Part shown: positions 8,613 through 23,630 of the stretch, one piece after another
How the letters are laid out: each line of letters starts with the position of its first letter
How positions within the stretch are numbered: the first letter of the stretch is position 1
Assembly (NCBI GenBank): GCA_964586615.1
Contig: CAZPIZ010000004.1
Location: 1-27,906, forward strand
Source: an uncultured Acidimicrobiaceae bacterium
GTDB lineage: Bacteria > Actinomycetota > Acidimicrobiia > Spongiisociales > ZC4RG35
Length of the DNA: 27,906 nt
Reading direction: 5' to 3'
Made by a program: the position numbers and the translations under genes
Notes under the pieces: model-generated
Databases searched by the model: none
What the model was told of the DNA's origin: nothing
What the model saw: only the letters and a program-made list of their open reading frames with translations

Positions 8613-9299
8613 GTGACGGCGGGCAAGCAACCGAGATACCTTGCGATTGCGGGATGGGCCCTGATCGGGTCGGGTTTGTTGATTGCTCTCTTCCTTTTCT
8701 ATCAGTTGTTCGTCACGGATCTCATCAACTCCCGATCGCAGGAAGCTGCCTCTAAAGATCTTGTGGTCGTGCTCGCAGATAGACGTGACGATCTGGTTGC
8801 GTCTTCCAGCACAACGACCACTTCCCAGGTCGTTGCGGCCCCCGAGCTGCTGGTCGAGCCGGAAGTGGATTCTGGTGAGCCCTTTGCCCGGCTGGTCATC
8901 GAGCGGATCGAGCTGGATGCAGTCGTATTCGAGGGCGTCGATCGTGCCACGCTCAAGTCGGGGCCCGGTCATATGCCGAGCACCCCTCTCCCGGGTCAAC
9001 CGGGCAATGCCGTGATCAGCGGGCACCGGACAACGTATGGGCGCCCGTTCTACGACCTCGATCTACTCGTCCCCGGTGACGAGATCGAGGTTGAGACCGC
9101 CCTCGGAATCAGCACCTACGCGGTTCGTGACGTCCTGATCGTGGCACCGACAGACGTCTGGGTCGCCAACAACATTGATGGCGCCTGGCTCACCCTCACC
9201 ACCTGTAATCCCCGATTTTCCGCGGCGGAACGGCTCGTGATCCAGGCCGAATTGGTTGACGGCCCCAACCTCGAGTACGTGGAGGCCGAGGCCGCATGA
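8613..9299 (+). CDS. Sortase (class E-like)
   Basis: N-terminal TM, GPGH, catalytic His in ISGHRTTYGRPF, LTLTTC and downstream Arg (AERL). TAGCCT lies 6 nt upstream of the GTG. Confidence 0.9.
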   Translation: MTAGKQPRYLAIAGWALIGSGLLIALFLFYQLFVTDLINSRSQEAASKDLVVVLADRRDDLVASSSTTTTSQVVAAPELLVEPEVDSGEPFARLVIERIELDAVVFEGVDRATLKSGPGHMPSTPLPGQPGNAVISGHRTTYGRPFYDLDLLVPGDEIEVETALGISTYAVRDVLIVAPTDVWVANNIDGAWLTLTTCNPRFSAAERLVIQAELVDGPNLEYVEAEAA

Positions 9300-9418
9300 A
9301 GCGATGGCAGAAAGTGCTGTTGATAGTGCTCGGATCGCTGGTCGGTCTCGTAGCACTCTTCTTCTTGTTCGAGTGGGCCGGGGACCTCCTCGACTCCGGT
9401 GGGACGATAGGCGGGTAG
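9296..9418 (+). CDS. Small 40-aa single-TM protein MKRWQKVLLIVLGSLVGLVALFFLFEWAGDLLDSGGTIGG
   Basis: Translated by hand. ATGA overlap with the sortase stop suggests translational coupling. Basic N-terminus and a clear TM helix. Confidence 0.65.
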   Translation: MKRWQKVLLIVLGSLVGLVALFFLFEWAGDLLDSGGTIGG

Positions 9419-9438
9419 GGGGATTAGCCTCCCCTGCC

Positions 9439-10050
9439 ATGTCTTTCCTGAGCCGCAAACGGGCCGAACTGACCGAGGGAGGTCTCGATTCCTCCAGGGT
9501 TCCGCCAGGTCAGTATGTGACCAAGCGTTTTCCTGTTCTACACGCGGGGGTTACGCCGCGGGTCGAGCTTTCGAAGTGGGATTTCCGGGTCGAAGGCCTG
9601 GTCGAGGAGCCCGCCACCTGGACCTATCGGGACATCCTCGACATGCCCCAATCCGAGCCGACGTTCGATATTCATTGCGTCACCAAATGGTCCAAGCTCG
9701 ACACAACCTGGCGAGGGGTGGCGGTCACCGAGTTGATGTCGCGCCTCAAGCCATCGGCCGGCGCCAGCCACGTGCTCGTTTTCGCCGAGCAGGGTTTCAC
9801 CGCCAACATCCCGCTGGCCGACTTCACCCGGCCCGAGAACCTCTTCGCTCATACCTTCGGCGGTGAGCCGCTGGAGCCCGACCACGGGTGGCCGCTGCGG
9901 CTGGTCGTACCTCACCTCTACTTCTGGAAGTCGGTGAAATGGGTGCGGGGTCTGCGCTTCCTTGACCAGGACACCCCCGGCTTCTGGGAGCGCAACGGAT
10001 ACCACATGTACGGCGATCCCTGGCGGGAACAGCGCTACTGGGGCGACTGA
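9439..10050 (+). CDS. Sulfite oxidase-like molybdopterin-dependent oxidoreductase
   Basis: RVPPGQ, FPVLH, Mo-ligand Cys in DIHCVTKWS, HGWPLRL, YFWKSVKW and GFWERNGYH. Start moved to ATG 9439 (TAGCCT 8 nt upstream). Confidence 0.9.
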   Translation: MSFLSRKRAELTEGGLDSSRVPPGQYVTKRFPVLHAGVTPRVELSKWDFRVEGLVEEPATWTYRDILDMPQSEPTFDIHCVTKWSKLDTTWRGVAVTELMSRLKPSAGASHVLVFAEQGFTANIPLADFTRPENLFAHTFGGEPLEPDHGWPLRLVVPHLYFWKSVKWVRGLRFLDQDTPGFWERNGYHMYGDPWREQRYWGD

Positions 10051-10058
10051 AACCCCCC

Positions 10059-10106
10059 TTCTTGTGACGGTTCACCACCTTGGCGGTAGGTCAACCGTCA
10101 CAAGAA
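10059..10106. repeat. 48-bp REP-like palindrome, copy L
   Basis: TTCTTGTGACGGTT-N20-AACCGTCACAAGAA, a perfect 14-bp inverted arm. 39/48 identical to 11080-11127. Confidence 0.9.
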
Positions 10107-10149
10107 CAGACCTCTTCTCATCGGTTGCCCCTTCGTTCAATGTTGCACG

Positions 10150-11088
10150 GTGGACCGGATCGTCAGCGATATGGGCGACGCCCAACATGGAGTACTCGGC
10201 CGGGCTCAAGCACACTCGTCTGGTCTGACGAATCGCCAGATCGATGTTCGTAAGAGCCAGGGTCGATGGGACCAGAACCTGCGGGGAACTTATCGCATCG
10301 GAGGGGCCGCACCCAACTGGCGTCAAGAACTCATGGCGGCAGTTTTGGCCGGGGGTCCGGGCACGGCCGTCTCCCATCGGGCGGCCCTCGAACTGCACGG
10401 CATCATGCCCTTCGCTCAGGTTGTGGAAGTCGTGACGCCCCGACCGCGCCGTTTTCGAACTCAGGGAGAGGTGACCATCCACACGTCGATGGTCCTCCCG
10501 GAAGAAGACTCCACGGTCGTCGATGGGATCGTCGTGGCAACCGTAGAGCGGGCCTTGCTCGACGGTGGAGCGGTGGTGAGTGATCGCAAACTCCAGTACT
10601 GCGTGGACGCTGCCGTTCGCCTGGGTCTTACAGATCACGAGCAACTCGCCAGTCTTCTCATGGCCCGGCGTAAGAAAGGCCGGCGTGGGGTGGGTCGTCT
10701 TGAACGGGTTCTCGAGCAATCACCTGACGGTTCGGTGCCTGAAAGCCGATATGAACGAGCGGCACTGACAATCGTTCGTGACTTCGGCCTCGAAGAGCCG
10801 GTTCTCCAGTATGTGGTCGTGCTGCCGTCAGGACGCAGGGTGAGGATCGACCTTGCTTGGCCACCGTCGTGGCTTGGAGTCGAGATCGACGGCCACGGCT
10901 ACCACTCGACGCGAAGCGAGCGCGCTTATGACGCCGAGCGAGACAATGAGCTTTCGCTGATCGGATGGAACATGCTCCACTTCACAACCGACCAGGTCTT
11001 CAAGCAGCCGGGCCTCGTCGGCAACACAATCTGGCGGGCCCTGCAGACGGCCAAGGCCGGTGCCGACATCCCCAACTCATTCTTGTGA
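10150..11088 (+). CDS. AbiEi-antitoxin-like N-terminal domain plus DUF559 (Vsr-like/PD-(D/E)xK) endonuclease domain protein
   Basis: QHGVLGRAQ N-terminus, AVSHRAALELHG, TVERALLD, ESRYE, and C-terminal RIDLAWP..LGVEIDGHGYH..DAERDNEL...GWNMLHFT. Confidence 0.85.
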   Translation: MDRIVSDMGDAQHGVLGRAQAHSSGLTNRQIDVRKSQGRWDQNLRGTYRIGGAAPNWRQELMAAVLAGGPGTAVSHRAALELHGIMPFAQVVEVVTPRPRRFRTQGEVTIHTSMVLPEEDSTVVDGIVVATVERALLDGGAVVSDRKLQYCVDAAVRLGLTDHEQLASLLMARRKKGRRGVGRLERVLEQSPDGSVPESRYERAALTIVRDFGLEEPVLQYVVVLPSGRRVRIDLAWPPSWLGVEIDGHGYHSTRSERAYDAERDNELSLIGWNMLHFTTDQVFKQPGLVGNTIWRALQTAKAGADIPNSFL

Positions 11089-11127
11089 CGCTTTGCCCCT
11101 CCTGTGGTAGGTCAACCGTCACAAGAA
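11080..11127. repeat. 48-bp REP-like palindrome, copy R (contains the stop codon of the DUF559 gene)
   Basis: TTCTTGTGACG-N26-CGTCACAAGAA with 11-bp perfect arms. The last 22 nt are identical to copy L. Confidence 0.9.
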
Positions 11128-11135
11128 GAGGGGAT

Positions 11136-13763
<2,628 letters not shown>

Positions 13764-13861
13764 TGCCACGGAGTGTACTTTGAACCCCGGACGGTTCTGC
13801 AGAGGGCATCCACGAAACCCCGACATCCTTCTGCCAATCGAAAGACGATGGATCTTTGCGG

Positions 13862-23574: not shown

Positions 23575-23582
23575 CAAACCCC

Positions 23583-23630
23583 TTTTGGCGCGGACATTCG
23601 ACACCAGGAAAGCAGACCAACGCGCCAAAA
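23583..23630. repeat. Solo 48-bp inverted repeat TTTTGGCGCG-N28-CGCGCCAAAA
   Basis: Perfect 10-bp arms, flanked by AAACCCC on the left and CGGGGGG on the right, like the 10.06/11.08 kb repeats. Confidence 0.8.

Follow-up and report, generated by a model that had tools for sequence, protein, structure and literature searches.

Why would a nuclease gene lie between two copies of the same palindrome, the second of which ends the gene itself? The question is raised by a 1.09-kb unit in a stretch of 27,906 nucleotides (the window), which is contig C4 of a 2.45-Mb, 455-contig metagenome-assembled genome (MAG; here G000) of an uncultured member of the Acidimicrobiia from permafrost/soil. The unit encodes a single protein in which a DNA-binding module of the AbiEi type is fused to a Vsr-like nuclease. 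Comparison of G000 with 40 related genomes (41 in all) revealed that it is one complete member of a widespread actinobacterial family, in which an AbiEi-nuclease gene lies between two copies of its own palindrome. The architecture, synteny and constraint of the unit, the dispersal, gain and loss of its repeat, and the co-variation of gene and repeat can be read directly from these genomes. An earlier note, made from the window alone, had suggested a selfish element analogous to the pairing of repetitive extragenic palindromes (REPs) with REP-associated tyrosine transposases (RAYTs), which might also supply a bidirectional terminator. The reading towards which we lean is a partnership resembling that of RAYTs and their REP doublets (REPINs): a resident, autoregulated gene whose product would recognise its own operator throughout the genome, maintaining the repeat and occasionally multiplying it.

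The unit, its palindromes and its protein

The features of the locus are listed below, the unit first and its neighbours last.

10050-10058, no strand: left outer flank, made of the A of the oxidoreductase TGA stop and a C-run; it prolongs the palindrome and forms the left end of a 27-nt terminal inverted repeat
10059-10106, plus strand: left 48-bp palindrome, with 11-nt arms TTCTTGTGACG/CGTCACAAGAA, a 26-nt interior and an asymmetric centre (GCGGTAGG); candidate AbiEi-type operator
10107-10149, plus strand: 43-nt spacer from the left palindrome to the GTG start; presumed promoter or 5' region
10150-11088, plus strand: nuclease gene (312 amino acids), with an AbiEi-type module (~residues 1-195) and a Vsr/DUF559/MTES_1575-type PD-(D/E)XK nuclease (~residues 200-305)
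11080-11127, plus strand: right 48-bp palindrome, oriented as the left copy; its left arm is the gene's last three codons and TGA stop
11128-11136, no strand: right outer flank, made of a G-run and the first base of the minus-strand aconitase stop; right tip of the terminal inverted repeat
9256-10050, plus strand: molybdopterin oxidoreductase (Oxidored_molyb), stop at 10048-10050
11136-13826, minus strand: aconitase (acnA), stop at 11136-11138

The pattern TTCTTGTGACG-N26-CGTCACAAGAA was matched exactly twice in the window, both times on the plus strand, and never in 100 dinucleotide-preserving shuffles. The two 48-bp copies are identical at 39 of 48 positions, with the first 11 nt and the last 22 nt unchanged and all nine differences at positions 12-26. 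Their shared orientation, and the restriction of their differences to the loop, had been described correctly in the earlier note. Its estimate of roughly 24 bp for the inverted outer ends can be extended: the terminal inverted repeat is 27 nt long (10050-10076 against 11110-11136, 89% complementary) and runs from stop codon to stop codon. The gene's stop (TGA, 11086-11088) lies inside the left arm of the right palindrome, as had been noticed, and the same overlap was found in G001, G002, G009 and L113. Equally, the unit occupies exactly the gap (10050 to 11136) between the oxidoreductase stop and the convergent aconitase stop. The pairing arms reach 18 nt at 94% complementarity in one copy and 14 nt at 93% in the other. 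Folded as single strands, the palindromes give -18.3 and -15.2 kcal/mol (z-scores against shuffles, -6.1 and -4.2).

Around the palindromes, the flank consensus CCCC(s)T / A(s)GGGG is common to 27 copies in the congener G001 and is the same at the window unit. The spacer at 10107-10149 aligns closely among G000, G001 and G002, although synonymous divergence (dS) between them is ~0.9-1.0. A simple scan returned no sigma-70-type promoter, and Rfam gave no match at E <= 1. None of the listed data sets that contain the locus is recorded as RNA. Three runs with the label 'METAGENOMIC RNA-Seq' are RNA by guess only; contigs of one of them, X16, cover parts of the gene, which cannot show transcription. 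Metagenomic strains vary just outside the palindromes: three runs carry A>T and a 1-nt deletion at 10052-10053, and one run carries ATT>GGG and two 1-nt deletions at the aconitase stop (variation at 11134-11142). The tips of the element and the C-terminus of aconitase are therefore variable within the population.

The palindrome resembles a known operator. In S. agalactiae, the experimentally defined operator of AbiEi has an 11-N27-11 form, extending to 23-N3-23 (49 bp), and sits in the promoter at most ~60 bp from the start codon (PMC3985639). The left palindrome of the window has an 11-N26-11 form, spans 48 bp and stops 43 nt short of the start codon; both geometry and position fit an AbiEi operator. 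Across the palindromic repeat classes of the family the median span is 49 bp. The outer arms are kept among orthologues down to 39% protein identity (G009, G026, G027, G029 and L113). The interior is swapped in each lineage for another self-complementary sequence, which is common to the gene-flanking and solo copies of one genome. All 27 copies of this class (class A) in G001 share a 46-nt core with a conserved centre (GCGGTAGG). Because this centre is asymmetric, each of these copies has an orientation, and both flanking copies point as the gene does. From the operator geometry, the conservation of the arms and the replacement of the interior, we infer on good grounds that the AbiEi module binds the palindrome arms. 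Many class-A interiors in G027 and G026 read TTATCCAC / GTGGATAA, which is DnaA-box-like in both half-sites; copies of the window's genus do not have this interior.

An ordinary autoregulated host gene could also present such a geometry. The upstream palindrome would then be its operator and the downstream one its terminator, and the nuclease would serve in repair or recombination, with no connection to the repeats. The solo hairpins would be useful to the host, as terminators, mRNA-stabilising sites or nucleoid sites, and would spread or persist without the nuclease. Both the fit to AbiEi operators in geometry and position and the strength of the hairpins agree with this explanation. It does not account, however, for the presence of an operator-type palindrome at the gene's end as well in nearly all members of the family, and a simple scan found no U-tract terminators. 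Together with the behaviour of the repeat families considered in the next section, this makes the host-gene explanation unlikely.

The assignment of the protein to AbiEi/DUF559 in the earlier note was confirmed. PADLOC AbiEi models match residues 8-175 (E 4.5e-29), and the Pfam families MTES_1575 (2e-9) and DUF559 (1e-6) match residues 231-298. The first part has the AbiEi fold, a winged helix-turn-helix (wHTH) at the N-terminus followed by the AbiEi C-terminal domain, and AbiEi_4 was found in 22 of 30 homologues. An AlphaFold (AF2) model built on 30 homologues reached a mean pLDDT (predicted local distance difference test) of 89. Foldseek matched its N-terminal ~200 residues to the AbiEi antitoxin 6y8q (E 1.4e-5, template modelling (TM) score 0.63 by target) and to Rv2827c (1zel). 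The C-terminal ~100 residues were matched to I-Bth0305I (3r3p, TM 0.82 by target), NGO0050/DUF559 (3hrl) and Vsr (1cw0), and a family profile run against the PDB retrieved 3hrl at 4.7e-10 and 3r3p at 3e-5. Pfam, PADLOC, NCBIfam and Foldseek gave AbiEi and Vsr/DUF559/MTES_1575 only, with no HUH/Y1 transposase. Eleven columns are invariant among 30 homologues with identity down to 26%, including S75-H76 in the AbiEi part. In the nuclease core D234, E245, H252 and D261 are invariant and D247 is kept in at least 90% of the 30 homologues; the catalytic role of these five residues is assigned from family knowledge.

Between congeners, the ratio of nonsynonymous to synonymous substitution rates (dN/dS) is 0.06-0.07 for the gene, 0.06-0.08 for aconitase and 0.15-0.21 for the oxidoreductase. 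Given a dN/dS equal to that of aconitase and the invariant residues, the gene is therefore intact and strongly constrained rather than a decaying passenger. Purifying selection as strong as on aconitase is also what a host gene would experience.

The kinship with AbiEi raises a further explanation, a defence or toxin-antitoxin-like module. Its AbiEi part would repress and restrain a toxic nuclease that is freed upon phage infection, and the palindromes would be regulatory or decoy sites. The strongest sequence matches of the protein are indeed to the PADLOC AbiEi models, its nuclease domain resembles that of the anti-phage proteins Hhe and ProA, and AbiEi proteins are known to autoregulate through palindromic operators. 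However, the unit holds one gene, and no AbiEii (DUF1814) nucleotidyltransferase partner was found in it or beside it; its neighbours are the oxidoreductase and aconitase genes and not a defence island. Long-term synteny and a low dN/dS are atypical of defence genes, and dozens of cognate palindromes at gene 3' ends would be left unexplained. We therefore regard a defence module as very unlikely.

Cognate repeats, solo palindromes and the presence of the gene

The pairing of gene and palindrome is not confined to the window. A tblastn search of G000 returned four further paralogs (25-31% identity), and all five family members are framed by their own ~50-bp repeat pair. The pairs of these paralogs differ in sequence, and each of their repeat families also has solo copies, with 3 to 22 loci per family. 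Homologues were found in 34 of the 41 genomes, with up to 8 matches per genome. Flank-to-flank alignment scores were at least 39 in 28 of the 30 best homologue loci; mismatched flank pairs averaged 22.6, and their 95th percentile was 27.7. The earlier proposal that paralogs would prove to have cognate flanking palindromes of their own was thus borne out, in 5/5 cases in G000 and 28/30 in relatives. The anatomy of the unit is constant, at 1.04-1.23 kb; the left repeat mostly stops ~40-60 nt ahead of the start codon, and in most cases the right one overlaps or adjoins the stop codon. Six repeat classes, drawn after the sequences had been viewed, track protein clades on a maximum-likelihood tree, with 9 changes as opposed to 21.1 in shuffles, none of the 200 being as low. 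Class A, defined by TTCTYGTGACG arms, is a single clade with 98/97 support, and each genome that has a class-A gene has one, with the repeat on both sides.

G026, and no other of these genomes, has the class-A palindrome in tandem doublets of 60-bp period, which surround the gene (as 123-nt repeats; L009 1326-1448 and 2409-2533) and also stand at solo sites (C2, C3 and C12). Among the repeats seen here, these doublets come nearest to a REPIN-like form.

Copies of the class-A palindrome were counted at no more than one mismatch, with reversed-pattern controls giving 0-1. Within the genus, the counts were 3 (G000), 27 (G001), 12 (G002), 6 (G003), 2 (G004) and 16 (G005). Four more distant genomes with the class-A gene (G009, G026, G027 and G029, taken as a group) gave 33, 15, 28 and 5, and 28 other genomes gave 0. 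In total G000 holds four copies, two flanking and two solo (contigs C49 and C60), the solo copies being orthologous to copies in G001. The expectation of many further copies was therefore met only in part: the fragmented MAG itself added just these two, whereas relatives with the orthologous gene hold 12-33. Several contigs of G000 begin within one of the five repeat families (seen in the first ~80 nt of C60, C112, C206, C29, C113, C181, C307 and C237). The repeats thus break assembly, and copy numbers in fragmented MAGs are underestimates.

At least four sites are filled in G001 and empty at the orthologous position in G000. Two of these sites are also empty elsewhere, in G000 and G004 at both and in G002 at the one checkable site. 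Because the outgroups also lack a copy at both sites, the comparison indicates that solo copies were gained in G001. At one of the gain sites, G005 has a palindrome of a different class at the same place. A candidate mark of hairpin opening, copy-specific palindromic extensions of the P-nucleotide kind, was sought and rejected: flank complementarity had a mean run of 2.2 against 2.0 in a shuffled control, and it is explained by the shared flank consensus.

The solo palindromes sit at gene 3' ends and form a dispersed extragenic population. Stop triplets lie 4-13 nt from solo copies on both sides, at ~3x a rough composition-based expectation. In a crude frame analysis, 9 of 25 solo copies lie between convergent frames and 1 of 25 between divergent frames. 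This position within 4-16 nt of stop codons, 9/25 convergent against 1/25 divergent, would suit hairpins that serve a host gene's surroundings, as would the persistence of palindromes where the gene was not found. The operators of a regulon, however, would be expected in promoters, whereas these copies are at 3' ends. Moreover, the host-gene explanation gives no account of a private dispersed family for each paralog that co-diversifies with the protein.

A dependence of the REPIN/RAYT type predicts that the repeat is depleted where the gene is gone (bioRxiv 10.1101/2021.07.10.451892). Among the 40 relatives, all six with a class-A gene (>=39% identity) carry the palindrome, with 5-33 copies each. 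Within the genus, two kinds of unit could be set against each other, as follows.

G004: class-A gene lost, 2 class-A palindromes; C6-type gene present, 8 C6-type repeats
G001: class-A gene present, 27 class-A palindromes; C6-type unit absent, 2 borderline C6-type matches
G002: class-A gene present, 12 class-A palindromes; C6-type unit absent, 1 borderline C6-type match

C6-type repeats number 9-21 in the remaining genomes with the C6-type gene. Within the genus, each of two gene losses thus coincides with depletion of the cognate repeat family only. The contrast between G004 and G001/G002 is reciprocal and controls for assembly quality. A host gene with independently useful hairpins offers no account of this reciprocal depletion of the cognate family after gene loss.

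Residence of the gene at one site

The order oxidoreductase, unit, aconitase was found in G000, G001 (89% amino acid identity), G002 (87%), L113 (65%) and G009 (39%). L113 is from another Acidimicrobiia MAG and G009 is another genus, and the synteny thus spans at least two genera. In G029 the unit again adjoins aconitase. A search for the locus with the single protein returned only three loci. In four metagenomes from four studies, contigs span both junctions and none skips the unit. A single clean empty site was found: in the congener G004 the oxidoreductase and acnA stops are 7 bp apart, with neither gene nor palindrome between them. An empty site in relatives, with the two neighbours adjacent, had been foreseen in the earlier note. 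Given the wider synteny of the unit, the site in G004 is most simply read as a clean loss of the gene.

The analogy with REP/RAYT therefore holds well, as three computational predictions, namely further copies, cognate palindromes around paralogs and an empty site, were borne out at least in part. The word selfish, however, is doubtful for the gene itself, because it is vertical at one site across genera, single-copy for each repeat class, fixed in four metagenomes and constrained like aconitase.

Other units of the family behave in the same manner. The C6-type unit is syntenic in G003, G004 and G005 and wholly missing, including both repeats, in G001 and G002, and the C7-type unit is syntenic in all five congeners. 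Presence or absence of whole units differs between species only. At the empty C6-type site, G002 has a fivefold tandem array of ~15-bp copies that stem from the end of the upstream gene (…CTGTTCTAA; L067, G002:C11, ~320-450), and G001 has a solo class-D-like palindrome. Depending on the genome, the unit that adjoins the 3' end of acnA is of class A (G000, G001, G002, G009 and G029), class D (G039, L031) or class E (G003), so that three classes share this gene end.

The situation in G003 is less clear. A class-A palindrome still follows the oxidoreductase stop, and that contig ends 7 nt after it. The aconitase contig holds a different paralog (27% identity) in the opposite orientation, with a class-E repeat at the contig start. 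Both contigs (L040, G003:C494, 1-1040; L036, G003:C388) break at repeats, and the arrangement is too ambiguous to show a palindrome-only empty site. An origin by insertion of the gene into a pre-existing palindrome was also considered; it is unsupported, as the sole clean empty site, in G004, has no copy.

These data bear on whether the whole 1.09-kb unit is an autonomous mobile element, comparable to an insertion sequence (IS) or a homing element. The palindromes would then be its ends, the nuclease its mobility enzyme, and the solo copies footprints or derivatives resembling miniature inverted-repeat transposable elements (MITEs). A 27-nt terminal inverted repeat running from stop codon to stop codon would be in keeping with such an element. 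So would whole units that are present or absent with nothing left behind (class A in G004, the C6 type in G001/G002), the three unit classes at the acnA 3' end, and a nuclease fold shared with the homing endonuclease I-Bth0305I. Against this, the unit stays at the same site across at least two genera, each genome has one gene per repeat class with paralogs only 25-31% identical, and no contig in four metagenomes skips it. A dN/dS of 0.06 is housekeeping-like, and solo palindromes were never turned into gene-bearing copies despite 27 potential targets in G001. Neither near-identical gene copies at several sites, nor a target-site duplication, nor strain-level insertion polymorphism, as would mark an IS or homing element, was found. 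An autonomous mobile unit is accordingly quite improbable.

A possible mechanism and its relation to known systems

Binding and cutting by the nuclease, its causal link to repeat dispersal, and mobilisation of the repeat are what we infer from these patterns, and they could be connected as follows. Two wHTH modules would sit on the pair of 11-bp outer arms in duplex DNA, in the manner of AbiEi at its 11-N27-11 operator, and the upstream palindrome would act as an autoregulatory operator. Through the same recognition, the fused nuclease would reach all copies in the genome. Nicks or cuts made at these copies and then repaired by the host may keep the repeat, homogenise it and occasionally duplicate it. 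A bolder version, which we put forward only tentatively, is that an AbiEi-guided Vsr-type nuclease drives a second, independently evolved class of vertically inherited intragenomic replicators in Actinomycetota. In that case, the enzyme would copy its own operator to new intergenic sites over long periods and keep the copies alike, and each genome would contain many co-diversifying lineages of enzyme and repeat.

Several observations weigh against a REPIN/RAYT-like partnership. Strand transfer is beyond a hydrolytic PD-(D/E)XK nuclease alone, and host repair would have to insert the repeats. No target-site duplication is definable at the solo sites, because intergenic DNA is too diverged (~80% identity). 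The flanking copies are direct in class A and inverted in class E, and a single orientation rule does not apply. In the tree test, the classes were drawn with the sequences in view and kin share labels. Each gene loss is a single evolutionary event, which makes n effectively 2. Copy number is not simply tied to the gene, as G000 has an intact gene and yet 4 copies. Finally, six genomes have the palindrome without a detected class-A gene, three of them congeners and the other three with 2-4 copies only. G005 (16 copies) and G003 (6 copies) have no detected cognate gene; the locus is broken at a repeat in G003 and unassembled in G005. Short-read bins easily miss a 1-kb gene that is enclosed by dispersed repeats.

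The closest parallel to the partnership is the REPIN/REP-RAYT system of Proteobacteria, in which a single-copy enzyme gene is likewise flanked by its own palindromic repeat (PMC3116915; bioRxiv 10.1101/2021.07.10.451892). As here, inheritance of the gene is vertical and its extragenic location constant, and copies of the repeat are scattered outside genes and turn over. Several specific gene/repeat pairs occur per genome. Where a RAYT gene is lost its repeat family is depleted, and the two gene losses in the present genus may follow the same course. The enzymes, however, are unrelated: RAYTs are HUH/Y1 transposases (kin of the IS200/IS605 TnpA), whereas the present protein combines an AbiEi wHTH with a Vsr-like PD-(D/E)XK hydrolase. 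A REP doublet of two inverted REPs is acted on as single-stranded DNA, while here there is one ~48-bp palindrome with the geometry of a duplex operator. Copy numbers are also lower (few to ~30), the phylum is different, and mobilisation by the enzyme is a conjecture here.

Each half of the protein has its own relatives. The N-terminal ~195 residues belong by family and fold with the AbiEi of type IV AbiE toxin-antitoxin systems (S. agalactiae 6y8q; M. tuberculosis Rv2827c, 1zel), which likewise have, just upstream of their own gene, a palindrome whose 11-bp arms are ~26-27 bp apart (PMC3985639). Unlike these, the present protein carries a fused nuclease domain and has no AbiEii partner, and further copies of its operator-like palindrome lie behind the gene and throughout the genome. 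The C-terminal part shares its fold and its acidic/histidine core with Vsr-like nucleases, such as the DUF559 protein NGO0050 (3hrl), Vsr (1cw0) and the EDxHD homing endonuclease I-Bth0305I (3r3p). The last of these shows that a Vsr-like fold can serve a mobile-DNA lifestyle. In contrast to these nucleases, the gene is associated with neither an intron or intein nor an adjoining cytosine methyltransferase; it is resident in an intergenic site, and targeting would presumably be through the AbiEi module.

Literature searches on DUF559, AbiEi and MTES_1575 with palindromes, mobility or REPIN returned no description of the unit, only notes on the domains and one table row, cited below. A partnership of repeat and enzyme that follows REPIN/RAYT logic with an unrelated enzyme is thus apparently undescribed. 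To our knowledge, REP/REPIN-RAYT is the only well-described case of a resident enzyme gene with its own dispersed repeats, and it involves one enzyme family in Proteobacteria. The same population-level signature was found here in another phylum with an entirely different protein, in a unit that is common (34 of 41 genomes). New in this analysis are the match to AbiEi operator geometry, the dN/dS values, the stability in metagenomes, the polarised solo gains and the reciprocal gene/repeat contrast within one genus.

If the nuclease does maintain or spread its operator, a REPIN-like lifestyle would have evolved convergently and would not be tied to HUH transposases. A very large orphan family, known in annotation only as 'AbiEi antitoxin domain / DUF559', would also gain a function, and there would be an explanation for a kind of intergenic palindrome in actinobacteria at which metagenome assemblies break. 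Naturally diversified pairs of protein and 48-bp site would then be at hand for the study of DNA recognition. If the nuclease neither maintains nor spreads the repeat, an unusual rule of gene architecture still stands, in which the gene closes with a second copy of its operator sequence. DUF559 proteins fill one row of a table of products that are over-represented among predicted targets of programmed inversion (PMC9881135); genes between inverted repeats could produce such an enrichment.

One further palindrome was seen in the window itself. At 23577-23624 lies a solo 48-bp palindrome with arms TTTTGGCGCG / CGCGCCAAAA and a C-run and a G-run around it. It differs from class A and belongs to class D, whose repeats flank the paralog on contig C165.

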